Below are positions 30,332 to 57,047 of a stretch of 64,000 bases of DNA, one piece after another. Location: the NCBI GenBank assembly GCA_934183325.1, contig CAKPSH010000004.1:27433-91432 (forward strand), given 5' to 3'. This DNA is from an uncultured Clostridia bacterium. Its GTDB lineage: Bacteria; Bacillota; Clostridia; TANB77; CAG-508. The position numbers were made by a program, and so were the translations under genes. Under the pieces are notes generated by a model. The model was not told the origin of the DNA, did no database searches, and was given only the letters and a program-made list of their open reading frames with translations. The first letter of the stretch is position 1. The number at the start of each line of letters is the position of its first letter.

Positions 30332-30487
30332 ATGAATAGATTAGAACAGACAATGGAAGATATGGAAATATTAAAGAAAATAGTAAATGCCGAAATTGAT
30401 ATAAAGAGTGTAGAATATTGTCAGAAAAAAAGAATACTTGACATCTGTAAACAAGAATTAGTAAAATTAAAAAAAGAAAAGTGTTGA
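30332..30487 (+). CDS. Possible small protein (51 aa) between the sigma4/alphaCTD gene and rlmD
   Basis: ATG with AGGGGA RBS; MNRLEQTMEDMEILKKIVNAEIDIKSVEYCQKKRILDICKQELVKLKKEKC; under the ORF-track cutoff. Confidence 0.25.
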   Translation: MNRLEQTMEDMEILKKIVNAEIDIKSVEYCQKKRILDICKQELVKLKKEKC

Positions 30488-30498
30488 GGAGAGATCAA

Positions 30499-31866
30499 GT
30501 GGAAAAAGAAATAAGAAAAAACGATGAATATATCGTTGATATAGTAGATAATGGATTTGAAGGAGAAGGAATTGCAAAAATAAACAATTTTACAATTTTT
30601 GTAAAAGGAGCAATTGAAGGAGAAAAAGTAAGAATACTAATTGTAAAAGTAAATTCATCTTATGCTTTTGCAAAAATACTAGAAATAATAAAAAAATCTC
30701 CATATAGATGTGATGAGGATTGTTCAACATATAAAAGATGTGGAGGATGTGATTTAAGACATATAAAGTATGAAAAAACATTAGAAATAAAGAAAAACAT
30801 GGTACAATCACTAGTTAACAAAACATTAGAAAATAAAATAGATGTAAATAATACAGTTGGAATGGAAAAGCCATTTAATTATAGAAATAAAGCACAATAT
30901 CCAGTAGGTATTAATAAAAACGGAGAACCAATATTTGGAGTTTTTGCAAATAGAACACATGAAATAATTCCTATTGACGATTGCAAAATTCAAACAAAAA
31001 TATCAGAAAGAATTGCACAATATGTAATTAATTTTATGAAAGATAATAAAATAAAAGTTTATGATGAAAAAAACAATAAGGGTGTATTAAGACATATTGT
31101 TGTAAAAGTTGGAATGAAGACTAATGAAGTAATGTGTGTATTAGTTGTAAATGAAGAAAAAATAAAAAATGAAGATGAATTGGTAAAAGGATTAATTGAT
31201 GCATTTCCAGAAATAAAAACAGTAGTAAAAAATGTAAATACAAAGAATACAAATGTAATATTAGGCAATAGAAATATAATTTTATATGGAAACGGATATA
31301 TAAAAGACAAATTAGGTGATTTTATATTTAAAATTTCACCAATGTCGTTTTATCAAATAAATCCAGTACAAACAGAAAAATTATACAATTTAGCAATTCA
31401 AAATGGAGAATTAAGCAAAGATAAAGTAATATTTGATTTATATTGTGGAATAGGAACAATTGGAATTTTTGCATCAAAGAATGTAAAAAAAGTATATGGA
31501 ATTGAAATTGTACCTCAAGCAATAGAAGATGCAAAGGAGAATGCAAAACTAAACAATATACAGAATGCAGAATTTATGGTTGGAGACGTAGAATTTGCAC
31601 TATCAGAATTAATAGAAAAAAGAAATATAATACCAGATGTAGTATTTGTAGATCCACCAAGAAGAGGATTAGACACTACTACTATTAAAAATTTAGAAAA
31701 AGTAAAACCAGAAAAAATAGTGTATATTAGTTGTAATCCAGCTACATTAGTAAGGGACTTAAAAATGTTTGAAGAAGAATATGAAATTAAAAGCATAATC
31801 CCAGTCGATTTATTCCCTTGGACTAAACATGTGGAATGTGTTTCGATATTATGTTGCAAAAACTAG
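30499..31866 (+). CDS. rlmD: 23S rRNA (uracil-C5)-methyltransferase RlmD/RumA family (TRAM + 4Fe-4S + SAM MTase)
   Basis: N-terminal TRAM fold, four-Cys cluster (C..CGGCDLRH), SAM-binding DLYCGIGTIG and catalytic region; start probably GTG 30499 after GAGGAGAG. Confidence 0.75.
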   Translation: MEKEIRKNDEYIVDIVDNGFEGEGIAKINNFTIFVKGAIEGEKVRILIVKVNSSYAFAKILEIIKKSPYRCDEDCSTYKRCGGCDLRHIKYEKTLEIKKNMVQSLVNKTLENKIDVNNTVGMEKPFNYRNKAQYPVGINKNGEPIFGVFANRTHEIIPIDDCKIQTKISERIAQYVINFMKDNKIKVYDEKNNKGVLRHIVVKVGMKTNEVMCVLVVNEEKIKNEDELVKGLIDAFPEIKTVVKNVNTKNTNVILGNRNIILYGNGYIKDKLGDFIFKISPMSFYQINPVQTEKLYNLAIQNGELSKDKVIFDLYCGIGTIGIFASKNVKKVYGIEIVPQAIEDAKENAKLNNIQNAEFMVGDVEFALSELIEKRNIIPDVVFVDPPRRGLDTTTIKNLEKVKPEKIVYISCNPATLVRDLKMFEEEYEIKSIIPVDLFPWTKHVECVSILCCKN

Positions 31867-31967
31867 AAAAATATAGTAAAATATTTATGTCTATTTGTTG
31901 ATATCCTGGTTTCAGGACGACTCGAGACATCCGCAAGAAAAAAACAATGTTTCTGGGAGGAAAAACA

Positions 31968-32429
31968 ATGAAATTATTTCACAAAGAAAATGGACAAGAG
32001 ACAGTCTATGTGCAGATGCAGGATATTTTGTATCTGGTGCATGAAAGTAATGTTTCTGTTCCGGCGTCTATCTTCGAAAAAGTCTTTTCAGTAGGAGCGG
32101 TTTTTGTTACTGATGCAAACCGGTTTGACTTTATAAGGTTTGAAGAAGAACATGAGGTTGACTTTTTTAAGAAACTTGAGTTTGTTATCGACTATGACCA
32201 GTACAAAGATTTCTCTGAAGAACAGCTTATAGCAGAGGTGAAAAAGTTAGAGGATAAGGCGAACGAGATCGCTGAAAAATGGAACGATATGACATCAGAA
32301 GAGAGAAGAGAAAACAGCGAGCTATACGAAGAACACCAGAATCTCGACTATATGTGCAGGTTTTTGTGTGAGATTTACTTCGTGAAACACGGCAAGAGGT
32401 CTATGCCATTTCCTGACTTTGTAAAATAA
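31968..32429 (+). CDS. Hypothetical protein on a compositionally atypical (about 40% GC by eye) islet
   Basis: ATG after GGGAGG RBS; ORF GC well above the surrounding window; followed by GC-rich hairpins; no family recognised. Confidence 0.45.
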   Translation: MKLFHKENGQETVYVQMQDILYLVHESNVSVPASIFEKVFSVGAVFVTDANRFDFIRFEEEHEVDFFKKLEFVIDYDQYKDFSEEQLIAEVKKLEDKANEIAEKWNDMTSEERRENSELYEEHQNLDYMCRFLCEIYFVKHGKRSMPFPDFVK

Positions 32430-32583
32430 CCCACAAAAGCTCTATCAAAAGAGCTAGAAGAAGTGAGAAGAACAAAGCTCTGCCTGTAGGCAGGGCTTTG
32501 TTCGTTATAATAAATAAGAAAATAATTGTAAAGTAAGTAGAACTGTGATACATTATATATAAATAATATTAGGAGAGTAAGAG

Positions 32584-34103: not shown

Positions 34104-34186
34104 ATGATATATTGATATGCAAATATGATAATAAAGATAGAATATAATTAATAAAAATGAACAATATAAAACAAGAGGTGGATAAG

Positions 34187-35185
34187 ATGTTTAAACCAAA
34201 AGCTTTATATTGTGAAAGAAATATTGAAAATTACACTTTAGGAAAAGAGATATTAGAAAAATATAAAGATGTTCCGATTATTGAAATAGATAATCATAAT
34301 AATATAGAAGAAATGAGAAAAAAACAGAATTCAGAATTTCCTGATATGAAAAGAAATTTGATAATAGGAGTGAGGAAAACCCACAAATTTGTAGAAAATC
34401 ATAAAACATCAGACTATTTAGTACCATATACATCTTCTGGGTGCACAGCAATGTGTATGTATTGCTATTTAGTGTGTAATTATAATAAATGTGCGTATTT
34501 AAGATTATTTGTTAATAGAGAAGAAATGCTAGATAAAATAATAAAAACAGCACAAAAAAGTGAAAAAGAACTAACATTTGAAATAGGAAGTAATAGTGAT
34601 TTAATATTAGAAAATACAATTACAAATAATTTAGTATGGACAATAGAAAATTTTGCCAATACAGAAAAAGGAAAACTTACATTACCTACTAAATTTAATA
34701 TGGTTGATGATATATTAACATTAAAACATAATAGAAAAGTAATTATAAGAATGAGTGTAAATCCAGAAGAGATTATTAATAAAGTAGAATTTGGAACTTC
34801 CAGATTAGCTCAAAGAGTAGAAGCAATAAATAAACTAATAGAAGCGGATTATCCAGTAGGGATATTAATTGCACCTGTAATATTAGTAGAGAATTGGAAA
34901 GAATTATATTCAAATTTAATAAAATATTTATATGACAATTTAAGTAAAAAAGTAAAAAAAGAAGTGTTTTTTGAAATTATATTTATGACATACAGTTATG
35001 TGCATAATGCAATAAATAGAGAAGCTTTTCCAAATGCAATTAATTTATTTGATAAAGATATAATGACTGGTAGAGGAAAAGGAAAATACATGTATAAAGA
35101 ATATATAAGAAAAGAAGGAGAAGAATTTTTAAGAAATGAAATGAATAAATATTTTAAAAATAATAAAATAATGTATGTAGTATAA
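34187..35185 (+). CDS. splB: Spore photoproduct lyase SplB (radical SAM)
   Basis: LIIGVRKTHKF, SGCTAMCMYCYL (Cx3Cx2C), GKLTLPTKF, VEFGTSRLAQRVEAINKLIEADYPVGILIAPV align with Bacillus SplB; start ATG 34187 after AAGAGGTGGA. Confidence 0.85.
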   Translation: MFKPKALYCERNIENYTLGKEILEKYKDVPIIEIDNHNNIEEMRKKQNSEFPDMKRNLIIGVRKTHKFVENHKTSDYLVPYTSSGCTAMCMYCYLVCNYNKCAYLRLFVNREEMLDKIIKTAQKSEKELTFEIGSNSDLILENTITNNLVWTIENFANTEKGKLTLPTKFNMVDDILTLKHNRKVIIRMSVNPEEIINKVEFGTSRLAQRVEAINKLIEADYPVGILIAPVILVENWKELYSNLIKYLYDNLSKKVKKEVFFEIIFMTYSYVHNAINREAFPNAINLFDKDIMTGRGKGKYMYKEYIRKEGEEFLRNEMNKYFKNNKIMYVV

Positions 35186-41852: not shown

Positions 41853-42130
41853 ATTAAAGCTATAAATTTGCGATGAAACAGAATGTGGCTACAAATATTA
41901 AGTAACAATATTTGGAGGGAACTTCTGCGGAGCATGTCATGGCTTAGACCAGGCGATAAGTTTTATATATAGAAACGCTTATCCCAAGAAAAATATTGCA
42001 AAATAACTTGGGATTAAATGTTATCATAAAAAGAAACACTAGGAAGCGTTTTAAAACTTGCCGTAATAATTTAGCTAAAGCACAGATTTTTAGCAAGTTA
42101 AAAAGATTTAAAAGGAGGGAAAAAATTACT

Positions 42131-42460
42131 ATGGCAGTTGCAAACAAAGTTACAAGTAGTGAAAAAATTAGAATAAGATTAAAAGCTTATGATCATGATG
42201 TTTTAGATCAGTCTGCTGCAAAAATAGTAGATACTGCTAAAAGAACAGGAGCAAAGGTTTCAGGTCCTATTCCACTACCAACAAAGAAAGAAGTCGTAAC
42301 AGTTTTACGTTGTCCACATAAGTACAAAGATTCAAGAGAACAATTCGAAATGAGAACACATAAAAGAGTTATAGACATAGCTTACCCAACACAAAAAACA
42401 ATTGATAGTTTAATGAAATTAGAACTACCAGCTGGTGTTGATATCGAAATGAAATTGTAA
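42131..42460 (+). CDS. rpsJ: 30S ribosomal protein S10
   Basis: [28 protein letters not shown] canonical S10; start ATG 42131 after AAAGGAGGG (the track ORF from 41996 is over-extended). Confidence 0.95.
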
Positions 42461-42603
42461 TTTTAAGTTACAAAATAATAATTATTAAAAAATATTTTTA
42501 AGAAGTAACCATGCTGACGAAAGCCAGCCAATAGTTAAGTTAGCCGTTCGAAAGAACATTACGGATAACTTATACGGTGAAACGTATAGGAGGAAAATTT
42601 AAA

Positions 42604-43239
42604 ATGGAAAAAGCAATTATAGGTAAAAAAATTGGAATGACACAAATATTTGATGAAAACGGATTAGTAGTTCCAGTTACAGCAATTGAAGCCGGACCAT
42701 GTGTTGTAGCACAAGTAAAAACAATTGAAAACGATGGATACAATGCAATTCAATTAGGTTACGGTGATGTTAAAGAAAATAGAATAAACAGACCAGAAAA
42801 AGGTCATTTTACAAAAGCAAATATTACAGCAAAAAAACATTTAAGAGAATTCAGAGTTTCAGATGTTGCTGATGTAACAGTTGGAAGCGAAGTTAAAGCA
42901 GATGTTTTTGAAGCTGGAGATAAAATAGATGTTCAAGGTACTTCAAAAGGAAAAGGATTCCAAGGCGTAATTAAACGTCACGGACAATCTAGAGGACCTA
43001 TGGGACATGGTTCTATGTATCATAGAAGACCAGGTTCAATGGGATCAACATCAACACCAGGAAGAGTATTTAAAGGTAAAAAACTACCAGGACACATGGG
43101 AGTTCAAACAGTTACAATACAAAACTTAGATGTTGTTAAAGTTGACCTTGATAAAAATGTAATATTAGTAAAAGGTAGTGTACCAGGACCAAAAGGTGCA
43201 ATATTAAAAATAAGAAAAACTGTAAAGAGCAGTAAATAG
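42604..43239 (+). CDS. rplC: 50S ribosomal protein L3
   Basis: [10 protein letters not shown]..canonical L3; start ATG 42604 after ATAGGAGGAA. Confidence 0.95.
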
Positions 43240-43259
43240 TAGAAAGGAGGAAGTAGAAA

Positions 43260-43883
43260 ATGCCAAAAATAGATGTATATGATATAAATGGTAAAAAAGT
43301 AAGCGAAGTTGAATTAAACGAAGAAGTATTTGGAATTGAACCAAATGAAGAATTAGTTCAAGCAGCAGTAGTTAATTATTTAGCAAATCAAAGACAAGGA
43401 ACACAAAGCACAAAAACTAGAGCTGAAGTTAGAGGCGGTGGAAGAAAACCTTGGAGACAAAAAGGAACAGGTAGAGCTAGACAAGGAAGTATACGTGCTC
43501 CACAATGGATAAAAGGTGGTATTGCATTAGGACCAAAACCACGTTCATACAGATATACAATCAATAAGAAAGAAAGAAGAATTGCTATCAAATCTGTATT
43601 AAGTTCAAAAGTATTAGAAAATCAATTAACTGTTGTTGATAATATTTCATTTGATGAAATAAAAACAAAGAATATGGTAACAGCACTTAACAATTTAAAA
43701 GTTGAAGGAAAAACTTTAATAATGTTAGCTGAAAAGAATGAAAACGTTCAAAAATCAGCAAGAAATATTGAAGGAGTAAAAACAACTTTAGTAAATACAA
43801 TAAATGTATATGATTTATTAAAATACAATAAACTTGTTGTTACTCTTGATACTGTTAAAAAATTAGAGGAGGTGTACGCATAA
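43260..43883 (+). CDS. rplD: 50S ribosomal protein L4
   Basis: Canonical L4, position after rplC. Confidence 0.95.
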
Positions 43884-44230
43884 TGATAGCAGAAGAAATT
43901 ATAATAAGACCAGTTGTAACAGAAAAATCAAGCGATGGGTTACAAGATGGAAAGTATACCTTTGAAGTTAACAAAAAAGCTACTAAAGTTGAAATTGCAA
44001 AAGCAGTTGAAAAACTTTTCGAAGTTAAAGTTTTAAAAGTTAACACAGTAACAGTAAGAGGAAAAGAAAAAAGAGTAGGTGTTCATACAGGAAGAACATC
44101 TGAATGGAAGAAAGCTATTGTAACAATAGATAGAAATCCAGAAGCAAAATCTTACCTTACAAAAGGTGGAAAAGAAGTTAAATCTTCTAAGAAATTCAAA
44201 GATTCAATTGATGAATTTATGGGTGCTTAA
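43883..44230 (+). CDS. rplW: 50S ribosomal protein L23 (with ~20-aa lysine-rich C-terminal extension)
   Basis: Canonical L23 core; overlaps rplD stop (TAATG). Confidence 0.9.
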
Positions 44231-44356
44231 TTAAGATAAAATTATCGAGAAATTACTCGGATAAAAAAGAATATCTGTGATACGGAGCAGGAAAAAATCC
44301 GTAAATATAATAAATGAGAAAACAATTAATATTGTTTGTAAAGAAAGGAAAATAAG

Positions 44357-45187
44357 ATGAAACACTTTAGAGCATATACTCCATCAAGAAGAAACATGGT
44401 TCTTTCTGATTATGCAGAAATCACAAAGAAAACTCCTGAAAAATCTTTATTAACAACAAAGAAAGAAAAAGCAGGAAGAAACTCTTATGGTAGAATAACA
44501 GTTAGACACCAAGGTGGAGGAAATAGACAAAAATATAGAATTATAGATTTTAAACGTAATAGAAATGATGATATGGAAGCAACAGTAATTGGTATCGAAT
44601 ATGATCCAAACAGAAGTGCAAACATAGCATTAATCGAATATGAAAATGGAGAAAGAGCTTATATTTTAGCACCAATCGGATTAACAGATGGAGCTAAAGT
44701 AGTAGCAGGAAAGAAAGCTGACATTAAACCAGGAAATTGTATGGAAATTGAAAGTATCCCAGTTGGTACAATGATTCACAACATAGAATTAAATCCAGGT
44801 CAAGGTGGAAAGCTAGTAAGAAGTGCTGGTCAAGCTGCACAATTAATGGCTAAAGAAGGTAAATATGCACATGTTAGATTACCTTCAGGAGAAATGAGAT
44901 TAGTTTTAGTAAATTGTAGAGCTACAGTAGGAACTGTAGGAAATACAGATCACGAAAACGTAAAATTAGGAAAAGCTGGAAAAACAAGACATTTAGGTAT
45001 ACGTCCATCAGTTCGTGGTAGCGTTATGAACCCAGTAGATCACCCTCATGGTGGTGGTGAAGGTAGAGCTCCAGTAGGACGTCCAGGACCAATGACTCCA
45101 TGGGGAAAACCAGCAAACGGATATAAGACAAGAAAGAAACATAATAGAACAGACAGACTAATTGTTAAGAGAAGAGGTGGAAAATAA
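44357..45187 (+). CDS. rplB: 50S ribosomal protein L2
   Basis: Canonical L2 ([14 protein letters not shown]... HPHGGGEG). Confidence 0.95.
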
Positions 45188-45468
45188 TGTCAAGATCAAG
45201 TAAAAAAACACCATTCGTAGAACCTAAACTATTAAAAAGAATAGAAGCTATGAATGAATCAGGAAAGAAAGAAGTTCTAAAAACCTGGTCAAGAGCATCT
45301 ACTATTTATCCACAAATGATTGGTCATACAATCGCAGTTCATGATGGTAGAAAACACGTACCAGTATACATTTCAGAAGAAATGATAGGACATAAATTAG
45401 GAGAATTTGCTCCAACAAGAACATTCAAAGGCCATGCCGGAGAAAAGGCAACAACAGTAAAGAAATAG
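45187..45468 (+). CDS. rpsS: 30S ribosomal protein S19
   Basis: [20 protein letters not shown].. canonical S19. Confidence 0.95.
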
Positions 45469-45486
45469 AAGGAGGTAATAGGTAAG

Positions 45487-45840
45487 ATGGAAGAAAATAC
45501 AGTATTAGAAGCTAGAGCAACTTTAAATAACGCTAGAATTTCTGCTAGAAAAGTTAAAATAGTTGCAGACTTAATAAGAGGAAAAGATGTTAATGAAGCT
45601 TTAGCTATCGTTAAATATACACCAAAAGCAGCATCACCAATGGTTGAAAAATTATTAAAATCAGCTATAGCAAATGCTGAAAACAATCATAATATGAATG
45701 GTCAAAACTTATATATTGCTGAAATCTATGCAAACCAAGGTCCAACAATGAAAAGAATTAGAGCAGCAGCAAAAGGTTCAGCTGTAAGAATAAGAAAGAG
45801 AACAAGTCATATAACAATAGTTTTAAGAGAGAGAGTATAA
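45487..45840 (+). CDS. rplV: 50S ribosomal protein L22
   Basis: Canonical L22. Confidence 0.95.
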
Positions 45841-45859
45841 GGAAAGGAGGATTTAAAAA

Positions 45860-46522
45860 ATGGGACAAAAAATGCATCCACATGGATTAAGAGTAGGTGT
45901 AATTAAAGATTGGAATTCAAAATGGTATGCTGATTCTAAAAACTTTAGTGATTACTTAGTTGAAGATAAAAAAATCCGTGAATATGTAAAGAAAAAATTA
46001 TACGTTAGTGGTATTTCTAAAATAGAGATTGAAAGAAATGCTAAAATCGTAAAAGTTAACGTATATACTGCTAAACCAGGATTAGTAATTGGTAAAGGCG
46101 GAGCATTAGTAGAAAGCTTAAAAGCTGAACTACAAAAAATGATAAATAAAGACGTAAATTTAAATATTGTTGAGGTAAAGGATTTCGATACAGACGCACA
46201 ATTAGTTGCTGAAAATATCGCATCTCAACTTGAAAGAAGAATTTCATTCAGAAAAGCAATGAAACAAGTAATGCAAAAAGCTATGAAAGCTGGAGCATTA
46301 GGAATAAAAACAGCAGTTTCAGGAAGATTAGCTGGAGCTGATATGGCAAGAACAGAATTCTATAAGGAGGGAACAATTCCTCTACAAACTTTAAGAGCTG
46401 ATATAGATTATGGATTTGCTGAAGCAAATACAACTTATGGAAAAATAGGTGTAAAAGTTTGGATTTATAAGGGTGAAGTTCTTCCTGAAAAAAAAGTTAA
46501 AACAGAAGGGGGAGAACAATAA
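45860..46522 (+). CDS. rpsC: 30S ribosomal protein S3
   Basis: [14 protein letters not shown].. KH domain; canonical S3. Confidence 0.95.
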
Positions 46523-46962
46523 TGCCATTAATGCCAACAAGAACAAAATATAGAAAAGTACAAAAAGGTAGAATTAGAGGTAAAGCTTCTAGAGGAAACC
46601 AAGTTACAGATGGTGAATTTGGTCTTCAAGCTTTAGAGATTGGAAGAATCAAATCTAATCAAATAGAAGCAGCACGTATTGCTATGACTCGTTACATTAA
46701 AAGAGGTGGTCAAGTTTGGATTAAAATATTCCCAGACAAACCAGTAACATCTAAACCTCTAGGAACTCGTATGGGTAAAGGAAAAGGAGCTCCAGAATAT
46801 TGGGTAGCACCAGTTAAACCAGGTAGAGTAATGTTCGAAATAGCAGGTGTACCTGAAGCAGACGCAAGAGAAGCTTTAAGATTAGCAGCAAACAAGTTAC
46901 CTATAAAAACAAAGTTTGTAGCTAAAGTAAATAATGTAGGTGGTGATAGCGATGAAGATTAA
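46522..46962 (+). CDS. rplP: 50S ribosomal protein L16
   Basis: Canonical L16. Confidence 0.95.
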
Positions 46963-47149
46963 TAAAATAAATGAAATGTCTTCACCAGAACTTGAAAAAG
47001 AATTAGGTGAGTTAAAAACTGAGTTATTCAAATTAAGATTCAGCCTAGCTACAAATGGATTAGATAATCCATTAAAAATAAAGGAAGTAAAAAAAGATAT
47101 AGCAAGAATAAATACAGTTTTAAGACAAAGAGAATTAAGTAATAAATAA
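46952..47149 (+). CDS. rpmC: 50S ribosomal protein L29
   Basis: [30 protein letters not shown].. canonical L29; start overlaps rplP end. Confidence 0.9.
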
Positions 47150-47194
47150 TAAAGGCATAAAATATTAGTGATTGAACTAAGAAAGGAGAAGATT

Positions 47195-47458
47195 ATGGAA
47201 GAAAGAAATCTTCGTAAAGTTATGATTGGTACAGTTGTATCTGACAAAATGGATAAAACAGTAGTAGTATCAGTTGAAACTAGTGTTAGACATAGTATAT
47301 ATAACAAAACTATGAAAAGAACATACAAATTAAAAGCACATGACGAAGAAAATGCTTGTCATGTAGGAGATAAAGTAAAAGTAATGGAAACAAGACCACT
47401 TTCTAAAGACAAGAGATGGAGAGTTGTTGAAATTATGGAAAAGGCAATAGTTAAATAA
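47195..47458 (+). CDS. rpsQ: 30S ribosomal protein S17
   Basis: [25 protein letters not shown].. canonical S17; start after GAAAGGAGAAG. Confidence 0.9.
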
Positions 47459-47542
47459 CATAATTTCTAAACTCGTTTTTAGTCATGAATATTAGAAAGC
47501 TAAAAAAATTTGAAATAAGAAATCGAAAAGGAGGACACTAAA

Positions 47543-47911
47543 ATGGTACAACAACAAACTGTATTAAAAGTAGCTGATAACACAGGTGCAAAAGAAATTA
47601 TGTGCATTAGATGTTTAGGTGGATCTTATAGAAGATATGCTCACATTGGTGATGTAATAGTAGCTTCTGTAAAATCAGCTGCTCCAGGTGGAACTGTAAA
47701 AAAAGGTCAAGTAGTTAAAGCTGTAGTTGTAAGAACAAAAAATCCAACAAGACGTGCAGACGGATCTTATGTTAGATTTGATGAAAATGCAGCAGTAATA
47801 ATAAAAGAAGACGGAACACCAACAGGTACTCGTATATTTGGACCAGTAGCTAGAGAATTAAGAGATGGTGGATATATGAAAATATTATCTTTAGCTCCAG
47901 AAGTTCTTTAG
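47543..47911 (+). CDS. rplN: 50S ribosomal protein L14
   Basis: Canonical L14. Confidence 0.95.
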
Positions 47912-47958
47912 ATTAAATAATATTAGTGAATAAAATAGCTAAAAAAGAGGTGAAATTA

Positions 47959-48267
47959 ATGAATATAAAAAAAGGTGATACAGTAAAAATCTTATCAGGA
48001 AATGATAAAGGTAAAACAGGAGAAGTAATGGAAGTAATACCTAAAACAGAGAAAATTGTTGTAAAAGGTATTAATATAAGAAAAAAACATGTAAAACCTA
48101 GAAAACAAGGTGAAGAAGGCGGAATTATTCCAGTAGAATGTGCTATACATAGCTCAAAAGTAAATCTTGTTTGTCCAAAATGTGGAAAAGCAACAAGAAT
48201 TGGTTATGTAATGGAAAAAGACGAAAAAGTACGTGTTTGTAAAAAATGTGGTGCAAAAATAAAATAA
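47959..48267 (+). CDS. rplX: 50S ribosomal protein L24 (variant carrying a C-terminal CxxC...CxxC zinc-ribbon)
   Basis: KOW motif KKGDTVKILSGNDKGK; C-terminal CPKCGK..CKKCGAK; start ATG 47959 after AAGAGGTGA. Confidence 0.9.
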   Translation: MNIKKGDTVKILSGNDKGKTGEVMEVIPKTEKIVVKGINIRKKHVKPRKQGEEGGIIPVECAIHSSKVNLVCPKCGKATRIGYVMEKDEKVRVCKKCGAKIK

Positions 48268-48291
48268 TTTAAAGAAAGGAGGAATTAAAAA

Positions 48292-48831
48292 ATGAGCGAA
48301 TTAAAGGAAAAATATTTAAAAGAAGCTGTTCCAGCTTTAACAAAAAAATTCGAATACAAATCAGTTATGCAAGTTCCAAAACTTGATAAAATAGTTATAA
48401 ATATAGGTCTTGGAGATACAAGAGATAATCCAAAAGACTTAGAAAATGCAATTAAAGATTTAAGCATAATAACAGGTCAAAAACCAATTATTACAAAAGC
48501 TAAAAAATCAATAGCTGCATTCAAATTAAGAGAGGGAGCAAATGTAGGATGCAAAGTTACTTTAAGAGGAGAAAAAATGTATGAATTTGCTTATAAATTA
48601 TTCAATACAGCTCTTCCAAGAGTAAGAGATTTTAGAGGTGTTTCTACAACTTCTTTTGATGGAAAAGGAAATTATTCATTAGGAATTAAAGAACAATTAA
48701 TATTCCCAGAAATTGAATATGATAAAATTGATAAATTAAGAGGAATGGATATAATTTTCGTAACAACAGCAAATAAAGACGAGGAAGCAAGAGAATTATT
48801 ATCTCTATTGGGAATGCCGTTTAGAAGCTAG
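48292..48831 (+). CDS. rplE: 50S ribosomal protein L5
   Basis: Canonical L5. Confidence 0.95.
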
Positions 48832-48950
48832 AAATTAGAAGTTAGAGGTTAGAAAGTAGAAAAATTCTAACATCTAATGTCTAACATCTAAAAAGTATTT
48901 CTAAAATTATAAAAAGATATATGAAGATATAAAAAGGAGGAAAATTCTAA

Positions 48951-49136
48951 ATGGCAAAAAAATCAATGATTGCAAAACAACAAAGACCACAAAAATTTTC
49001 AACAAGAAAATATAATAGATGTAAATTATGTGGTAGACCACATGGATATATAAGAAAATATGGAATATGCCGTGTATGCTTTAGAGAATTAGCTCATAAA
49101 GGTGAAATCCCTGGAGTAAAGAAAGCTAGCTGGTAA
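48951..49136 (+). CDS. rpsN: 30S ribosomal protein S14 type Z (zinc-binding, 61 aa)
   Basis: [21 protein letters not shown]4 motif. Confidence 0.95.
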
Positions 49137-49204
49137 AATTTAAGTTAGATAAGAGAAATCTAACAAAAAATAATTGAGTTATAAGTAAGGAGGGAAATTA
49201 AAAA

Positions 49205-49603
49205 ATGGTAACAACAGATCCAATAGCAGATATGTTAACAAGAATCAGAAATGCTAATACAGCAAAACATAAAACAGTTGATATTCCTGCATCAAAAATG
49301 AAATTAGCTATTGCTAATATATTATTTAAAGAAGGATATATAAAATCTTTCGAAGAAATAGCTGGGGAAAACCAAGCAACAATAAGAGTTACTTTAAAGT
49401 ATGATGAAAAAGGTAAAAGAGTTATAGACGGTATAAAGAGAATAAGTAAACCAGGATTAAGAATATATACTTCAAAAGAAGATTTACCAAGAGTATTAAA
49501 TGGTTTAGGTATAGCAATTGTATCTACATCAAAAGGAATAATGACAGATAAAGAAGCAAGATCATTAGGATTAGGTGGAGAAATAATCGCTTACGTATGG
49601 TAG
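49205..49603 (+). CDS. rpsH: 30S ribosomal protein S8
   Basis: Canonical S8 ([14 protein letters not shown]). Confidence 0.95.
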
Positions 49604-49652
49604 TAAAAAATTATTGAAATATAAAAAGATATATAGAGAGGTGAAAACAATG

Positions 49653-50189
49653 TCAAGAATAGGAAAACAACCTATTACAATTCCAGAAGGAGTTGAAGTA
49701 AAAATAGATGGTAATAAAGTATCTGTAAAAGGACCAAAAGGAAGTCTTGAAAAAGAATTCAATCCATTAATGAACATAACAATCGAAAATAACGAAGTTA
49801 TAGTTACAAGACCAAATGATGAAGAATTATCAAGAAGCTTACATGGTTTAACAAGAACTTTAATCCACAATATGATAATGGGTGTTAAAGATGAATTTAA
49901 GAAAGAATTAGAAATCAATGGTGTTGGTTATAGGGTTGCAAAACAAGGAAACAATCTTAACCTAACATTAGGATATTCTCATCCAGTAATATTTGAAGCA
50001 CCAGCTGGTATAACATTTGACGTTCCAAATCAAAACCAAATCATAGTAAGAGGAATTGACAAAGAATTAGTTGGTCAAACAGCAGCTGTTATAAGAACAA
50101 AGAGATTACCTGAAGTTTATAAGGGTAAAGGTATCAAATATGCTGACGAAGTTATTCGTAGAAAAGAAGGTAAAACTGGTAAAAAATAG
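49653..50189 (+). CDS. rplF: 50S ribosomal protein L6
   Basis: [18 protein letters not shown].. canonical L6; start after AGAGAGGTGAAAA. Confidence 0.95.
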
Positions 50190-50252
50190 TTTTTGCCAAT
50201 TAATTAGAAAACTTTTAAAAATTGTAATAATGAATGGAAAGGAGAGAAAGAA

Positions 50253-50612
50253 ATGGTTTCTAGTACAAACAGAAAAATGGAAAGAGAAAGAAGACATGCT
50301 CGTGTACGTAGAAAGGTTAGTGGAACAGCTGAATGTCCAAGACTTTGCGTATACAGAAGCAATGCAAACATCTATGCTCAAATAATAGATGATGTTAAAG
50401 GAGTAACACTTGTTTCTGCTTCAACATTAGACAAAGAAGTAAAAGAAAAACATAGCAATATTGAAGCTGCAAAAGAAGTTGGAGCTTTAATAGCAAAAAG
50501 AGCTTTAGAAAAGAAAATTGAAAACGTTGTATATGATAGAGGCGGATATATCTATCACGGTGTTGTAAAAGAATTAGCTGAAGCCGCTCGTAATGGAGGA
50601 TTAAAATTCTAA
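50253..50612 (+). CDS. rplR: 50S ribosomal protein L18
   Basis: Canonical L18. Confidence 0.95.
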
Positions 50613-50649
50613 AACATAAATAATGTAAAAAAGGAGGAAAAAACCTAAA

Positions 50650-51144
50650 ATGGAAGAAAATCAAAATCCAGTAGAATTAAAAGAAAAGGTTGTTTCTATC
50701 AGCAGAGTAGCAAAAGTTGTTAAAGGTGGTAGAACATTTAGATTTAGCGCTGTTGTTGTTGTTGGAGACGAAAAAGGACATATTGGTGTAGGAAATGGTA
50801 AATCATCAGAAGTTCCTGATGCTATCAAAAAAGCTATCCAAGATGCAAAGAAAAATCTAGTAACAGTACCTGTTGTTGGAACAACAATTCCACATGAATT
50901 TGTAGGAAGATCTGGAAGTGCAAGAGTTATATTAAAACCTGCTGCAGTTGGTACAGGACTTATAACAGGAGGAAGTGTAAGACCAGTTCTTGAACTTGCA
51001 GGATACAGAGATGTAAGAACAAAGATAATTGGAACAACAAATCCAAGAAACGTAGTAGCAGCTACAATTCAAGCTTTAACAAGCATGAGTACAATAGAAT
51101 CAGTAGCAGCAAAAAGAGGTAAAAAAGTAGAAGATATTCTATAG
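50650..51144 (+). CDS. rpsE: 30S ribosomal protein S5
   Basis: Canonical S5 ([15 protein letters not shown]). Confidence 0.95.
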
Positions 51145-51232
51145 TTCTTAGCTTATATCAAGCGAAGCTAGAATGAAAAAACTTAGAAATAATAAATGAT
51201 AAAATGAATCAATAAAGAAGGAGGGAAAAAAG

Positions 51233-51667
51233 ATGCAACTAGGAGAATTAAAATCAGCTACAGCTAAAGTTTCAAGAAGAAGAATCGGACGTGGTGTAGG
51301 TTCTGGTCTTGGAAAAACTTCTGGAAAAGGACATAAAGGACAAAAAGCAAGAAGTGGTGGAGGAGTAAGACGTGGATTTGAAGGTGGTCAAACTCCATTA
51401 TATAGAAGATTACCAAAAAGAGGATTCAAAAATGTACATGCAAAAGAATATACAGAAGTAACTTTAACTATGTTAAATAAATCAACAGTTGAAGAAGTTG
51501 ATGCAGCAACACTTTTAGCAGATGGTATAATTAAAAAAGTAAGAGATGGAATCGTTATCTTAGGAACAGGTTCTATCGAAAAGAAATTGACAGTTAAAGC
51601 AAATAGATTTACAAAATCTGCAGGAGAAAAAATAGTAGCTGCAGGAGGAAAGATAGAGGTGATTTAA
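51233..51667 (+). CDS. rplO: 50S ribosomal protein L15
   Basis: Canonical L15; no L30 gene in the 88-nt gap after rpsE. Confidence 0.95.
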
Positions 51668-52990
51668 TTGTTACAAACAATAAAGAATGCAATTAAAACT
51701 CCAGATGTAAGAAAAAGATTACTATATACATTATTGCTTATAGTAATCTTTAGGCTTGGTTGTTATTTAACAGTTCCAGGTGTAGATAGTATAGCACTTG
51801 AAAAAGCAATGAATACTACTACAGCTGGATTTGGTGGTTTAATTAATATAATTTCCGGAGGAGCTTTATCAAGATTTACAATGTTTGCTATGAGTATAAG
51901 TCCTTATATCACAGCATCAATTGTAATTCAATTACTTGCAATGGTAATTCCATCATGGGAGAAAATGGCAAAAGAAGGTGGAGAATTAGGTAGACAAAAA
52001 CTTAATAAATACACCAAATTGCTAACAGTTGTACTAGCAATAGTAGAAGGATTAGGAATTTATTTATCTTATAAATCATATGGAATTTTCGTAGATGATA
52101 CAGTATTAACTGGAATAACAGTTGTATTATCATTAGTAACAGGTACTTGCTTACTTATGTGGCTTGGAGATGAAATATCAAACAAGGGAATAGGTAATGG
52201 AATATCAGTTATAATATTTGTTGGTATTATATCAGGTTTACCAGGAGTAGTAGTTACATTATTTAATTTAATATTTACATCATCAGGATTTTCAACAACA
52301 GGTTTAATAACAACTTTAGGAATTATAATTGGAGCAATTATTCTTGTAGCAGGAGTTGTATTTGTACAAGAAGCTGAAAGAAGAGTTCCAGTACAATATG
52401 CAAAAAAAGTAGTAGGAAGAAAAATGTATGGAGGACAAAATACACATATACCACTTAAACTGGTTATGGCTGGTGTTATGCCAATAATTTTTGCCTCATC
52501 ATTTATGACATTCCCTGCAATGATAATTTCAATGTTTAATCAAAACATTGCATCAGAAACAGGTTTTTGGTCAGTAATATATAAATTTTCACTTGCTACT
52601 TCATCATCAAGTGTACCAATAGGATATACAATAGTTAATGCAATTGTATATTTACTATTAATAGTAGGATTTACATTCTTTTATACTTATGCAACATTTA
52701 ATCCAGCAGAAGTATCAAGCAATATAAAGAAAAATGGAGGATTTATACCTGGAATTAGAGCTGGGAAACCAACAACAGATTATTTATCTTCTATAATAAC
52801 AAAAATAACTTGGTTTGGAGGACTATTCTTAGCTGTAATAGCAATACTACCAATGTTATTAAGATTTACAAATCTAGATATTTCTTTCGGAGGAACATCT
52901 ATACTAATCATAGTAGGAGTTGCACTAGAAATTGTACAACAATTAGAATCTCAATTAGTAATGAGACATTACAAGGGATTCTTAGATTAA
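51668..52990 (+). CDS. secY: Preprotein translocase subunit SecY
   Basis: 10-TM SecY; TTG start overlapping rplO stop, after GAGGTGA. Confidence 0.9.
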   Translation: MLQTIKNAIKTPDVRKRLLYTLLLIVIFRLGCYLTVPGVDSIALEKAMNTTTAGFGGLINIISGGALSRFTMFAMSISPYITASIVIQLLAMVIPSWEKMAKEGGELGRQKLNKYTKLLTVVLAIVEGLGIYLSYKSYGIFVDDTVLTGITVVLSLVTGTCLLMWLGDEISNKGIGNGISVIIFVGIISGLPGVVVTLFNLIFTSSGFSTTGLITTLGIIIGAIILVAGVVFVQEAERRVPVQYAKKVVGRKMYGGQNTHIPLKLVMAGVMPIIFASSFMTFPAMIISMFNQNIASETGFWSVIYKFSLATSSSSVPIGYTIVNAIVYLLLIVGFTFFYTYATFNPAEVSSNIKKNGGFIPGIRAGKPTTDYLSSIITKITWFGGLFLAVIAILPMLLRFTNLDISFGGTSILIIVGVALEIVQQLESQLVMRHYKGFLD

Positions 52991-53010
52991 ATTTGAAGGG
53001 AAATAAAATT

Positions 53011-53670
53011 ATGATATTAATTATGTTAGGAGCACCTGGTACAGGAAAAGGAACAGTTGCTGGAATTCTTTCAAAAGAATTAGGAATTGTTAGTGTATCA
53101 AGTGGTGATATATTTAGAAAAGCAATATCAGAAAAAACAGAATTAGGAAAAGAAGTTGAAGGATATCTTGCAAAAGGAGCATTAGTTCCTGATGATTTAA
53201 CAATAAGAGTTATTGAAGCAAGATTATTAGAACCAGATTTAAAAGATGGTGTAATATTAGATGGATTTCCTAGAACAACTCATCAAGCAGAAGTGCTAGA
53301 AGAATTCTTAAAAGAGCATGGAAAGGAAGTTACAAAAGTAATAAACTTAGTAACACCTGAAGAAGAAATTGTCGAAAGAATAGTAAATAGAAGAATATGC
53401 TCAAATCAAAATTGCAAGACAGTATATAATATAAAATTAAATCCACCAAAAGTAGAAGGAATCTGTGACATCTGTGGAGAAAAATTAATTCAAAGAAAAG
53501 ATGACACAGAAGAAGTTATCAAAAGTAGATTGAATACATATTATACTGAAACTGCACCAATAGAAAAATTCTATGAGGAAAAAGGAAAACTATATTCAAC
53601 AAAAGTTAGCCAAAAGATAAATAGATTAGCTCAAGAAGTTGCTAATGATGTTGTAAAATTATTAAAATAA
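53011..53670 (+). CDS. adk: Adenylate kinase (zinc-binding LID: C..C..C..C)
   Basis: MILIMLGAPGTGKGT P-loop, LID CSNQNCKTVY..CDICGEKL; the track ORF from 52810 is an over-extension into secY. Confidence 0.95.
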   Translation: MILIMLGAPGTGKGTVAGILSKELGIVSVSSGDIFRKAISEKTELGKEVEGYLAKGALVPDDLTIRVIEARLLEPDLKDGVILDGFPRTTHQAEVLEEFLKEHGKEVTKVINLVTPEEEIVERIVNRRICSNQNCKTVYNIKLNPPKVEGICDICGEKLIQRKDDTEEVIKSRLNTYYTETAPIEKFYEEKGKLYSTKVSQKINRLAQEVANDVVKLLK

Positions 53671-53723
53671 TTATTAGAGCTTAAAAGCTGATATAAAAGT
53701 TTTGGGTAGCTAAGCAAAAGAGA

Positions 53724-53752
53724 AAGTCGGAAATATTTAATATATCCGACTT
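53724..53752 (+). terminator. Hairpin after adk (weak terminator; a second 9-bp-arm hairpin follows at 53755-53778)
   Basis: aagtcgga-13nt-tccgactt; T-run weak. Confidence 0.3.
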
Positions 53753-53911
53753 AATTGTATACTAGGAAAAGTATACAAAAATAAGTTTATGTAAAGCAAA
53801 AAAGTATAAAAATACTTAATATATATTTTATTTTAATTATAAATATCTGCATAATTTTATAAAAGAGAATAGAAAGGATGTTGGTGTAAGTACCAACAAA
53901 GATATAAAATA

Positions 53912-54682
53912 ATGATAGAAATAAAATCTAAAAGAGAAATTGAATTAATGAAAGAAGCTTGTAGAGTTACAGCATTAGTACATAAAACACTTGAAGAAGC
54001 CATAAGACCAGGAATAACAACATTAGAATTAGATAGAATTGCTGAAAAAGTAATAAGAGAAAATGGAGGAATTCCTGCTGAAAAAGGTTATCCAAGTGGA
54101 GAAAAAGGAGTAATGGATTTCCCAGGTTCAATATGTGCATCAGTAAATGATGAGGTAATACACGGAATACCATCAAATAGAGTAAGATTAAAAGAAGGAG
54201 ACGTAATAAGTATAGATCTTGTTACATACAAAGATGGTTATAATGGTGATGCTGCTAGAACACATATAGTTGGAAAAGGTTCAGAACAAGATAGAAAGCT
54301 AGTAGAAGTAACTAAACAATCTTTTTTCGAAGGAATAAAATTTGCAAAAGTAGGATATAGAATAGGAGATATTTCTTATGCAATACAACAATATGTTGAA
54401 AAAAACGGATTTAGTGTTGTAAGAGAATTTCAAGGACACGGAATAGGAAGACAAATGCATGAAGATCCAGGAATACCAAACTATGGAAAACCAGGAAAAG
54501 GTCCAAAGTTGGAAGCTGGAATGACACTTGCAATTGAACCTATGGTTATAATGGGAAAGCCAGATATATGGGAATTGGAAGATGGATGGACAATAGTTAC
54601 TCAAGATGGAACAAAAGCCGCTCATTATGAAAATACCATTTTAATAACAGAAAAAGAACCAAAAGTGTTGACATTATATTAA
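53912..54682 (+). CDS. map: Type I methionine aminopeptidase
   Basis: Canonical MetAP1 metal ligands (D..D..H..E..E pattern), ~255 aa. Confidence 0.9.
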   Translation: MIEIKSKREIELMKEACRVTALVHKTLEEAIRPGITTLELDRIAEKVIRENGGIPAEKGYPSGEKGVMDFPGSICASVNDEVIHGIPSNRVRLKEGDVISIDLVTYKDGYNGDAARTHIVGKGSEQDRKLVEVTKQSFFEGIKFAKVGYRIGDISYAIQQYVEKNGFSVVREFQGHGIGRQMHEDPGIPNYGKPGKGPKLEAGMTLAIEPMVIMGKPDIWELEDGWTIVTQDGTKAAHYENTILITEKEPKVLTLY

Positions 54683-54751
54683 AAATATTATATAATATTA
54701 CAGTTAACTAGAATAATTAAATGTTACATAATATGAAAGGGGAGAAATCAA

Positions 54752-54970
54752 TTGGCAAAAGAAGATATTATTGAAGTTGATGGAATAGTTGTAGAAACTT
54801 TACCAAGTACTACTTTTAGAGTAGAAATAGAGGGAGGACATAAGGTACTTGCTCAAATATCAGGAAAGTTAAGACAAAATTTTATCAAAATATTACCAGG
54901 AGATAAAGTTCACTTAGAAATATCACCTTATGATTTATCAAGAGGACGAATCGTATGGCGTGCAAAATAA
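54752..54970 (+). CDS. infA: Translation initiation factor IF-1
   Basis: [29 protein letters not shown].. canonical IF-1. Confidence 0.95.
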
Positions 54971-55008
54971 TGTAACAGTTAATATAAAAATTCAGGGAGG
55001 TAAAAACA

Positions 55009-55122
55009 ATGAAAGTAAGACCATCAGTAAAACCAATGTGTGAAAAATGCAAAGTTATAAAAAGAAAAGGTGTTATTAGAGTTATTTGTGAAAATCCAAA
55101 ACATAAACAAAGACAAGGCTAA
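55009..55122 (+). CDS. rpmJ: 50S ribosomal protein L36
   Basis: [37 protein letters not shown]; below ORF-track cutoff; RBS GGGAGG. Confidence 0.9.
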
Positions 55123-55151
55123 TAACCAATTAATTTAATTAAATTTGATAT

Positions 55152-55206
55152 TAACACAAATTTGTTGCGGCTGACAAGCCTCAATAGGCTTACTCAAGTT
55201 TGTGTT
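55152..55206 (+). terminator. Long imperfect hairpin after rpmJ (terminator/attenuator-like)
   Basis: aacacaaatttg...caagtttgtgtt outer stem and aagcct-caat-aggctt inner stem. Confidence 0.35.
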
Positions 55207-55344
55207 TATATATATTTAGTTTATTAGAAAAATTATACAAATATGTATAAATTCGGTAAACTAAGTCAAAATAGCTTAATACTATTTTGAAAATACACAA
55301 AAAAATGATTACTATTGCATTTGTCAACATAAGATATTTAAAAA

Positions 55345-55376
55345 AGTGGATAACTTTGTGGATAACTTGTGATAAA
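55345..55376 (+). promoter_or_regulatory. Cluster of DnaA-box-like motifs upstream of rpsM
   Basis: aGTGGATAA (55345-55353), TGTGGATAA (55357-55365, perfect reverse-complement of TTATCCACA), TGTGaTAAa (55368-55376), all same orientation. Confidence 0.35.
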
Positions 55377-55519
55377 TTGAATAAAAGCAATACATTTCAG
55401 GTTATTTTAATGTGTAAATTCTTTTTTTAGAAATATAATTCTCAAAAAAGATATAAGGAAAACTTTAATAAAGCCTTAAAAGGTTTTCTATAAAATAAAA
55501 ATCGGAGGTGCTAAAATAT

Positions 55520-55897
55520 ATGGCTCGTATAGCAGGTGTAGATTTACCTAAAGAAAAGAGAGTTGAAATAGGACTTACTTATATTTATGGTATAGGTTTA
55601 ACAAGTTCACAAAATATCTTATCTAAAGCTGGAATAAATCCAGATACTAGAATCAAAGATTTAACAGATGAAGAAGTTAATAGCATAAGAAAAATAATAG
55701 ATGAAGAATATAAAGTTGAAGGTGATTTAAGACGTGATATAGCTCTTAACATCAAAAGACTTAAAGAAATTGGATGCTATAGAGGATTAAGACATAGAAA
55801 AGGTTTACCAGTTAGAGGACAAAGAACAAAAACTAATGCTCGTACAAGAAAAGGTCCAAAAAAAGCAGTTATAAAGAGCAAAACTGCAACAAAATAA
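55520..55897 (+). CDS. rpsM: 30S ribosomal protein S13
   Basis: [26 protein letters not shown].. canonical S13; start ATG 55520 after GGAGGTG. Confidence 0.95.
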
Positions 55898-55914
55898 GGA
55901 AGGAGTAAGTTAAA

Positions 55915-56313: not shown

Positions 56314-56349
56314 TAAATTAAAAAATATAGAAAGAGGTGTAATTATTAC

Positions 56350-56976: not shown

Positions 56977-57047
56977 AATTTAATACTTTAACATAATTTA
57001 GGCTATATGAGAAAGGCCTCAAAAAATAATATATAGTGGAGGTAAAA

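Follow-up and report, generated by a model that had tools for sequence, protein, structure and literature searches.

A one-gene cassette with deeply divergent alleles at the 3' end of rlmD in an uncultured Clostridia bacterium

We analysed a stretch of 64,000 nucleotides (the window) from an uncultured Clostridia bacterium of the GTDB group CAG-508 (assembly GCA_934183325.1, contig CAKPSH010000004.1, positions 27,433 to 91,432), in which a GC-rich islet encoding one protein of 153 amino acids lies directly 3' of the 23S rRNA methyltransferase gene rlmD. The islet is probably a moron-like accessory cassette that derives from mobilisable elements, has been selectively retained 3' of rlmD and exists as ancient alleles swapped by recombination, and its product would have a role in conflict or recognition. 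A preliminary description of the window, made from the sequence alone, had proposed a horizontally acquired cassette, and this was supported on three grounds, as the cassette is absent 3' of rlmD in 62 loci of other genomes, homologous units occur at unrelated loci and in mobilisable elements, and its codons are non-native. Horizontal spread as a promoter-to-terminator unit is thus real. If our reading holds, the islet marks an unannotated, widespread family that travels with mobilisable elements and with defence- or toxin-type cargo in human-gut Clostridia, and the locus would open a testable way into the interactions of elements and hosts in gut lineages that are uncultured and very AT-rich. 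The anatomy of such cassettes is known; the protein family, its repeated solitary insertion, its multi-allelic state and its persistent excess of GC at third codon positions (GC3) are new.

Limits, alleles and parts of the cassette

The window is very AT-rich, with an overall GC content of 0.273 across the 64 kb. In 300-nt windows the GC content was 0.36-0.41 across ~31800-32500, compared with 0.22-0.28 in rlmD and 0.21 in the downstream genes, and the sliding-window GC and GC3 plots confirmed the islet first described at 31880-32510 as richer in GC than its surroundings (flanks 0.21-0.28). The open reading frame (ORF) of 153 amino acids (31968..32429, + strand) showed a GC3 of 0.43 against a mean of 0.127 for the 67 window ORFs of at least 100 amino acids, the next highest value being 0.20; its neighbours, rlmD and a gene of 110 amino acids, have GC3 values of 0.12 and 0.20. 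Since it is GC3 that stands out, the GC excess of the ORF is a codon-level effect and not an amino-acid effect. A separate region of the window, 42000-57000, also holds GC-richer genes, which have high GC at first and second codon positions yet a GC3 of merely 0.07-0.15. By composition this fits conserved, highly expressed genes such as those for ribosomal proteins, the genes there being unannotated, and a plain GC plot would wrongly class this region with the islet because its GC3 is ordinary.

The limits of the cassette were set by homology to other loci (homologous or comparison loci are labelled L001-L140) and run from 31854 to ~32503-32512. Blastn homology to L109, L110 and L111 spans window positions 31854-32502; elsewhere it starts at 31854 (L138) or 31849 (L121) and ends at 32503-32512 (L096, L112, L124). 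On the left side, the homology of rlmD to other species stops at 31839-31852, and at 31870 for L030, which aligns through the stop codon. Since the promoter position, the leader, the ribosome-binding site (RBS), the ORF and the terminator all fall within these homology-defined limits, the cassette is, as read from its sequence, a complete transcription unit of ~650 bp.

The cassette is fixed in this species. It was carried at the rlmD site by 21 of the 21 conspecific contigs read for the exact downstream 110-amino-acid protein (8 places shown) and at the places shown for the exact cassette protein, exact and near-identical protein forms occurred on ~70 contigs, and the ORF was intact in all 35 conspecific contigs fetched (L001-L008, L080-L085, L088-L095, L108). 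The preliminary description had set a foreign origin against conservation of the ORF at one position in all relatives with native codon usage. In all conspecific contigs read the ORF indeed lay at one position; its codons are non-native, however, and it is not located there in other species.

The ORF exists in at least three allele classes, namely A, which comprises the window copy and variants at 99% identity, B, at 85% amino-acid identity (L080, L081, L089 and L091, which come from different samples and assemblers, Hadza metagenomes among them), and C, at 73% amino-acid identity (L082-L085). Between carriers of different alleles, the 3' untranslated region (UTR) and both of its hairpins were 98-100% identical, and the 110-amino-acid gene, def, a GNAT gene and spl were 98.4-100% identical (alignments of at least 300 nt). 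Synonymous divergence (dS) in the ORF was 0.56-0.62 between A and B and 0.84-0.97 between A or B and C, with ratios of nonsynonymous to synonymous divergence (dN/dS) of 0.13 and 0.14-0.17, respectively, while the genes to the right of the cassette gave a dS of 0-0.04 and rlmD of 0.05-0.08. The synonymous divergence of the alleles is therefore 10-60 times that of their flanks. Such a pattern, in which deeply split allele classes lie between near-identical flanks, is a classic hallmark of genes for recognition or conflict.

The divergence is concentrated in one part of the ORF. Differences between A and B reach 20-30 per 100 nt in 32180-32330, whereas most of the flanks show 0-2 per 100 nt; directly beyond the stop codon the differences fall to 0, and to the left they diminish irregularly and form patches in the 3' half of rlmD. 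The peak of inter-allele divergence defines a hypervariable core at codons 72-125 (32180..32345, + strand), which corresponds to two long helices and their tip in the predicted structure. Codons 71-140 showed a dS of 1.2-2.2 with a dN/dS of 0.09-0.14, and the highest local dN/dS, 0.29-0.34, was found in codons 101-125. On these comparisons the ORF is kept intact under purifying selection. The leader is 90% identical between A-type and B/C-type alleles, and in L091 a leader of A type precedes an ORF of B type, thus demonstrating that recombinants exist. Among the 120 homologues listed, the three alleles are mutually nearest. Since the flanks are near-identical, the dS of the alleles exceeds theirs 10-60-fold, mosaics occur and GC3 is foreign in all alleles, the data argue for allele exchange and not for divergence in place; the alleles would have been imported or exchanged by homologous recombination.

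Two other sources of the divergence were considered and rejected. In-situ hypermutation, including that by a diversity-generating retroelement, does not agree with changes that hit all four bases (A versus B differences: A 21, C 13, G 15, T 13; 63% transitions), with UTRs more conserved than the ORF, with a dN/dS of 0.13-0.17, or with a window that holds no second, template-like copy of the variable region. The idea that GC-rich sites decay faster under AT-biased mutation was discarded, since between A and B the differences from GC to AT balance those from AT to GC and every allele has a GC3 of ~0.4; our own rough estimate gives this process at most a roughly two-fold effect. A second local recombination patch was seen in spl (34157-35185), which is 96% identical over 350-550 nt in L004, L005 and L094, the rest of these contigs being 99.8-100% identical.

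The left end of the cassette (31854..31882, + strand) carries a putative sigma-70 promoter with a -35 box TTGCAA at 31854-31859, a 17-nt spacer and a -10 box TAAAAT at 31877-31882, at a conserved position on the 5' edge of homologous cassettes. Equivalent pairs were recognised at other loci, namely TTGTAA-17-TAAAAT (L109), TTGCAA-17-TAGAAT (L104 and L117), TTGCAA-17-TATAAT (L138) and TTGCAA-17-TATACT (L115). A promoter pattern scan is uninformative in this AT-rich window (147 matches versus 143 expected from shuffles), and the assignment rests on positional conservation because the pattern match alone is not significant. The -35 box overlaps the final codons of rlmD (TGT TGC AAA AAC TAG), so that the end of RlmD (…HVECVSILCCKN) is partly encoded by the cassette; the last 3-4 rlmD codons (CCKN) lie inside the cassette edge.

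The promoter is followed by a 5' leader of ~85 nt (31883..31967, + strand; GC 0.38), which contains a small hairpin (TCCTG at 31904-31908 pairing with CAGGA at 31913-31917) and the RBS GGGAGG at 31955-31960, 7 nt ahead of the ATG. L109, L104 and L115 likewise have a hairpin of ATCCT...AGGAT type together with the motif ATGTTTyTrrGGAGG. On its own the leader has no significant fold (z = -1.0), and Rfam gave sub-threshold chance matches only. The ORF and its RBS were located where the preliminary description had placed them. An upstream in-frame ATG at 31947 was rejected as the start, since the family members all begin with MKLFH and in L104 a stop codon follows that ATG. The encoded protein, a member of an uncharacterised family, has a mass of 18.5 kDa and an isoelectric point (pI) of 4.7.

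Downstream of the ORF, a first hairpin (AGCTCT-ATCAAA-AGAGCT; 32438..32455, + strand) is invariant across the three alleles. The following 14 nt (32456-32469, agaagaagtgagaa) resemble the end of longer homologues of 168-170 amino acids, where they code for a basic tail, and might be a relic of such a tail-coding sequence. The second hairpin, GAACAAAGCTCTGCC-TGTA-GGCAGGGCTTTGTTC (32470..32503, + strand), is of the intrinsic-terminator type, as indicated by fold statistics and conservation in the family. The 3' hairpin region folds at -34.4 kcal/mol (z = -6.3), none of 200 shuffles being equally stable, and one G-U pair in the terminator stem favours the + strand RNA. A hairpin of the form GCTCTGC-loop-GCAGGGC lies 3' of the homologues in L096, L109, L112, L100, L086 and L104. 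Nearby host terminator-like sites contain 3-5 G-C pairs in stems of 12-20 pairs, in agreement with the earlier remark that the two hairpins differ from the AT-rich terminators elsewhere in the window; both hairpins are present, although the stem of the second one proved longer than first described (15 bp).

The cassette is flanked on the left by an intact rlmD/rumA-type gene for a 23S rRNA (uracil-5)-methyltransferase (30481..31866, + strand; Pfam TRAM and tRNA_U5-meth_tr). On the right, an AT-rich spacer of 80 nt separates the terminator from the next host gene, which starts at 32584, has host-like composition, encodes 110 amino acids and is followed by def.

Distribution of the family and the rlmD locus in relatives

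Integrative mobilisable elements carry homologues with 64% identity to the cassette protein, in a fixed position next to the relaxase gene. These elements (L134, L140) measure ~10 kb and are organised as tyrosine integrase, a 67-amino-acid ORF, DUF6076, variable cargo, the family gene, relaxase, MobC, DUF6664, TnpV and RepA_N. The cargo consists of NTase-like and PemK genes in L134 and of Fic, a 338-amino-acid ORF and HD_3 in L140. To either side of the cargo the backbones of the elements are 90-91% identical, and the block that extends from 14 nt before the ATG of the family gene through relaxase and MobC is 91% identical between variants in which the cargo has been swapped. A second type of element, adjoining the host gene pheS, carries a serine recombinase and TnpV and ends in a Schlafen-AlbA_2 gene and the family gene, while in a third mobile context the gene lies in an island closed by a tyrosine integrase (L086).

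Lone or near-lone copies were found between core genes of other AT-rich Clostridia, namely between rseP and polC (L104-107, L117), beside uvrA (L130) and beside feoB (L120). A copy between spoIIP and ychF is accompanied by a DinD-like gene (L013/L014), and the copy of L100 lies beside a tRNA cluster and rpmF. In this last locus, three tRNA genes recognised by eye (L100:9250-9510) stand directly upstream of a cassette with a second promoter type, which is followed by a perfect, operator-like palindrome, AACTTGCAATATGCAAGTT, kept in L014, L086, L118, L119, L126 and L128.

The DinD-like neighbour matches the PADLOC candidate PDC-S13 (E = 2.7e-86), for which a literature search found nothing. Intact or as a fragment, the DinD-like gene adjoins the family gene in about six independent contexts (L014:5154-5846, L110:3113-3949, L112:6823-7182, L124:6712-7053, L086:5606-5812 and L138:8520-8820), compared with 2 of 63 control loci. 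It was also seen near rlmD in L032, L038 and L110. Genes for ToxN, PemK, Fic and Schlafen/AlbA_2 proteins occur near the family gene at other loci.

The suggestion that the insertion might be a phage moron was not borne out as to phage origin. A scan of IMG/VR returned no relative of the family, neither the window protein nor a distant member of 270 amino acids had a match in INPHARED or PLSDB by blastn and tblastn, and there was no significant PHROG match. The carriers are integrative mobilisable elements and small chromosomal islets.

The elevated GC3 is a trait of the family. In all 12 contexts examined, the family gene had a GC3 of 0.25-0.43 against 0.08-0.22 in its neighbours, even inside AT-rich mobilisable elements; a few partners share the excess, namely HD_3 (0.31), an 81-amino-acid ORF (0.34) and a 151-amino-acid ORF (0.28). 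All alleles of the window locus have a GC3 of 0.38-0.44, which climbs along the ORF from 0.34 to 0.54. Because the excess is a property of the family in every context, composition alone does not date the acquisition. Either repeated arrival from a GC-richer pool outpaces decay, or GC at synonymous sites is maintained, perhaps through GC-biased gene conversion at a hot spot of recombination. Across the family, synonymous constraint showed a modest excess only, at codons 1-10 and 46-60, with no clear embedded nucleic-acid element.

A scan with RlmD of one genome per species returned no representative of this species, the nearest being uncultured low-GC Clostridia with RlmD proteins 75-81% identical. 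None of the 62 rlmD loci of other genomes has the cassette, the 110-amino-acid gene or def downstream, so that no exact empty site can be reconstructed from them. In one metagenomic lineage with an RlmD 65% identical, the order is rlmD, a 113-amino-acid gene and the cassette, i.e., one gene further downstream; this cassette is 71.6% identical in DNA, close to the 74% of rlmD itself. The rlmD neighbourhood may hence be an old home or a repeated target of the cassette.

The 3' end of rlmD is clearly a hot spot in this clade. The C-terminal tails of the relatives' RlmD proteins after the HVEC motif (L017-L079; window equivalent ~31830-31866) fall into discrete, block-wise types, and identical tails (CCSVLYLKDSIQ) occur in RlmD proteins only 62-75% identical. 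At least a dozen contigs of relatives end at or just after rlmD. In L024, ParA/ParB genes and a Cna-like surface protein gene at 33-35% GC lie directly 3' of rlmD, and in high-GC hosts low-GC DNA is found at this position. These features fit the rumA attachment site for integrative and conjugative elements (ICEs) with serine integrases: rumA is a documented primary target of the single serine integrases that streptococcal ICEs and C. difficile CTn5 use, and their insertion alters the RumA C-terminus (PMC4701971).

The predicted protein and its possible role

The cassette protein is acidic, with 33 aspartate and glutamate against 19 lysine and arginine residues. As the preliminary description had it, the protein belongs to no known family: searches of Pfam, NCBIfam, PHROG and PADLOC with the 153-amino-acid sequence gave chance-level matches only, those in PADLOC-DB v2 being NsnC (0.0019), JetB (0.0029) and Csx23 (0.013). 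A close search returned 174 relatives, none of them named or with a Pfam domain. A profile search of 1.84 billion cluster representatives extended the family to 706 clusters at E<=1e-3 and 408 clusters at E<=1e-10, this size being counted in clusters at 50% identity. The source names of eight clusters were "hypothetical protein" only, a further database search, made with a profile built from distant members, returned neither names nor a Pfam domain, and Pfam found nothing in ten distant or longer members. Some members reach 250-290 amino acids, and their extra C-terminal part is also devoid of Pfam domains.

An AlphaFold2 model built on 39 sequences (pLDDT, the predicted local distance difference test score, of 91; pTM, the predicted template modelling score, of 0.82) predicts a two-part protein. 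Residues 1-80 would form an N-terminal alpha/beta domain made of a beta-hairpin, helices and one more strand, and residues 84-140 a long antiparallel C-terminal helical hairpin. A Foldseek search of the model against PDB and BFVD found no fold match, and the family profile gave nothing below E = 0.089 against PDB sequences. In the wide family alignment only M1 and K2 are invariant, with V15, Q16, D19, F55, F67, D75 and P149 nearly so, a pattern that would suit a binding protein better than an enzyme. Many relatives have a short basic C-terminal tail, which the window copy lacks.

We propose the following course of events. The one-gene unit (31854 to ~32505) would circulate among AT-rich gut Clostridia, either in small integrative mobilisable elements, where it lies at the border of the cargo region, or as a lone insertion between core genes, and in this species it would have inserted at the very 3' end of rlmD. 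Cross-overs in the conserved ends of the ORF, in the UTRs or cassette ends and in rlmD would have exchanged its alleles, which may be held by balancing (frequency-dependent) selection or be repeatedly introgressed from an unsampled pool. The product would be a soluble, acidic, two-part protein in which the conserved N-terminal domain provides a common activity and the variable helical hairpin a recognition surface for a varying partner, most likely a protein of a rival mobile element or of a conflict system (defence, toxin or exclusion). The host would retain the gene because its product protects or discriminates. We assign an allele-specific protein-recognition role in mobile-element conflicts, with the helical hairpin as specificity surface, with low confidence.

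A more specific form of this proposal is possible, albeit doubtful. The family might be a new module for recognition or immunity that consists of a single protein, belongs to gut Clostridia and the mobilisable elements they carry, and combines a conserved N-terminal domain of novel fold with a swappable hairpin as specificity surface. The rlmD copy might then be a domesticated, type-specific protector whose alleles are kept over very long times by frequency-dependent selection and shuffled at the cassette ends, its GC3 excess arising through GC-biased gene conversion. Such a protector would act, for example, in element exclusion or by neutralising an element-borne effector.

Several observations weigh against our proposal. 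The databases searched hold no sequence or fold relative of known function, the promoter is inferred from conservation, and no defence-type gene is associated with the family gene at the window locus itself. Among the conspecific contigs read none is without the cassette, so that the species offers no empty site and the insertion event is undocumented. No window of the ORF showed a dN/dS above 1 (maximum 0.34), which points to ancient divergence under constraint without a signal of diversifying selection. No donor carrying allele B or C was found elsewhere, and persistence within the lineage (trans-species polymorphism) and introgression from unsampled sister lineages are indistinguishable. 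Finally, the GC3 excess of the family inside AT-rich elements is unexplained by a simple model of recent arrival.

Competing explanations and further observations

Specificity loci that are polymorphic within conserved flanks are known from the comQXP pherotypes of B. subtilis, from lambdoid immunity regions and from orphan immunity genes. The cassette resembles them in its allele classes of near-saturated dS within near-identical flanks, in its mosaics and in the focusing of variation on one structural part. It differs in being a single cytosolic protein, with no signalling, repressor or toxin gene linked to it in the window and no signal of positive selection. Phage morons are independent promoter-gene-terminator units between phage genes, such as the one encoding the HK97 superinfection-exclusion protein gp15; they are dispensable and often protective in conflicts (PMC13492144). 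The cassette shares with them the single gene with its own putative promoter and terminator, the composition unlike that of the neighbours and the horizontal spread. However, it lies outside any prophage, among rlmD, the 110-amino-acid gene and def, and its carriers are mobilisable elements and bare chromosomal intergenic sites. Integron gene cassettes are promoterless ORFs with attC sites, arrayed beside intI, whereas the rlmD cassette is solitary, has a conserved putative promoter and no nearby integrase, and its 3' hairpin is a perfect terminator-like stem with a G-U pair.

That serine integrases are documented to target rumA (PMC4701971) raises the unlikely explanation that the cassette is the terminal cargo gene left behind by an ICE that used the rumA/rlmD 3' end as attachment site and was otherwise deleted. 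The rumA elements (Tn5252/Tn1549-type in streptococci, CTn5 in C. difficile) share with the cassette the target gene end and the signs of insertion in relatives, namely the RlmD tails that differ block-wise after HVEC, the contigs breaking at the rlmD 3' end and the ParA/ParB element of L024; in L138 and L086, moreover, the family gene sits at the extreme end of recombinase-bearing islands. The cassette itself, however, measures 650 bp, lacks integrase and conjugation genes, and has its junction at the rlmD stop codon, ~15-25 nt 3' of the conserved HVEC-coding site at which the relatives' tails diverge. Between 32503 and 32584 there is neither a fragment of an integrase nor a displaced 3' end of rlmD nor any other gene of an element, no recombinase ORF or fragment was found within 28-36 kb of the window, and the same promoter-to-terminator limits recur at unrelated loci other than rumA. 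It is very unlikely, in turn, that the family is a backbone accessory factor of mobilisable elements (for transfer, establishment, exclusion or anti-defence), with the chromosomal copy domesticated or left behind and now hindering or helping incoming elements. The conserved block of family gene, relaxase and MobC, with its swapped upstream cargo (L134, L135, L140), and the absence of the family from the phage collections searched agree with such a role, and some anti-restriction proteins are acidic and helical like the cassette protein. On the other hand, many copies are solitary and far from any relaxase, a relaxase-like gene is non-adjacent in L138, and no similarity to ArdA, KlcA or other known factors was found in Pfam or PDB. 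Compared with the Firmicutes elements that combine integrase, RepA_N, TnpV and MobC/relaxase, the window copy likewise has no element around it, and its promoter type is the one shared with other lone copies. An autonomous mini insertion sequence of the IS200 type, with the 153-amino-acid protein as transposase and the hairpins as ends, can practically be dismissed. A length of ~650 bp, a single ORF of ~150 amino acids and hairpins are traits of IS200-like sequences, and copies of the cassette do occur at several unrelated intergenic sites in different species. Nevertheless, apart from a chance hit, no Y1/HUH (PF01797) or other transposase domain was detected at Pfam E<=0.1, the family alignment conserves no His-hydrophobic-His or Tyr motif and no His/Tyr catalytic set, and the predicted fold is one of three strands and a helical hairpin. 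In addition, the 64 kb contain one cassette and no second copy of its ends, its junctions show neither terminal inverted repeats nor target duplications, and, rather than having spread as identical copies, its alleles are deeply diverged at a single fixed site.

The remaining alternatives concern what the gene does. The toxin/immunity-type insertion suggested in the preliminary description would make the protein an orphan immunity protein or antitoxin, each allele neutralising a different toxin variant of a competitor or mobile element; we consider this quite unlikely. A small, acidic, cytosolic protein of a very diverse family would suit that function, as would a solitary, horizontally spread gene with deep alleles and variation focused on one structural element, and a PemK or Fic toxin gene stands upstream in two variants of the mobilisable element. 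Yet no toxin adjoins the family gene consistently, its upstream partners being PemK, HD_3, DinD-like genes, small ORFs or none, and no toxin gene adjoins the ORF in the window. Within the mobilisable elements the gene is part of the conserved block on the relaxase side, outside the swapped toxin cargo, and Pfam, NCBIfam, PHROG and PADLOC gave no match to a known immunity or antitoxin family. It is highly improbable that the islet is a functionless hitch-hiker, i.e., neutral leftover DNA, or a native gene of odd composition. The gene is small, unannotated and without an assigned function, as expected for such a case, but its ORF is intact in 35 conspecific contigs with a dN/dS of 0.13-0.17 at a dS of up to ~1, its RBS, leader and terminator are conserved, its distribution is patchy and copies reside on mobile elements. 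The moron-like cassette, which may be retained for a role in conflict or recognition, remains our preferred explanation.

Two further observations were made during the analysis. Upstream of rlmD, the window segment 28287-30487 contains an ORF of 676 amino acids with three RNA-polymerase alpha-CTD-like helix-hairpin-helix stretches and a weak match to sigma-70 region 4, followed by an ORF of 51 amino acids. Both have host-like GC3, and both are missing from the asnS-rlmD interval of the relative L024, where a membrane protein is encoded instead. In three of the comparison loci (L009:9697-12477, L010:9603-11855 and L016:6856-9636), Mn-catalase (CotJC-like) ORFs of 126 or 201 amino acids lie beside a large serine recombinase gene. 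In L009 and L016 a ToxN-type toxin gene is located between the Mn-catalase ORF and the recombinase. The arrangement at the three loci resembles an intervening element in a sporulation gene.

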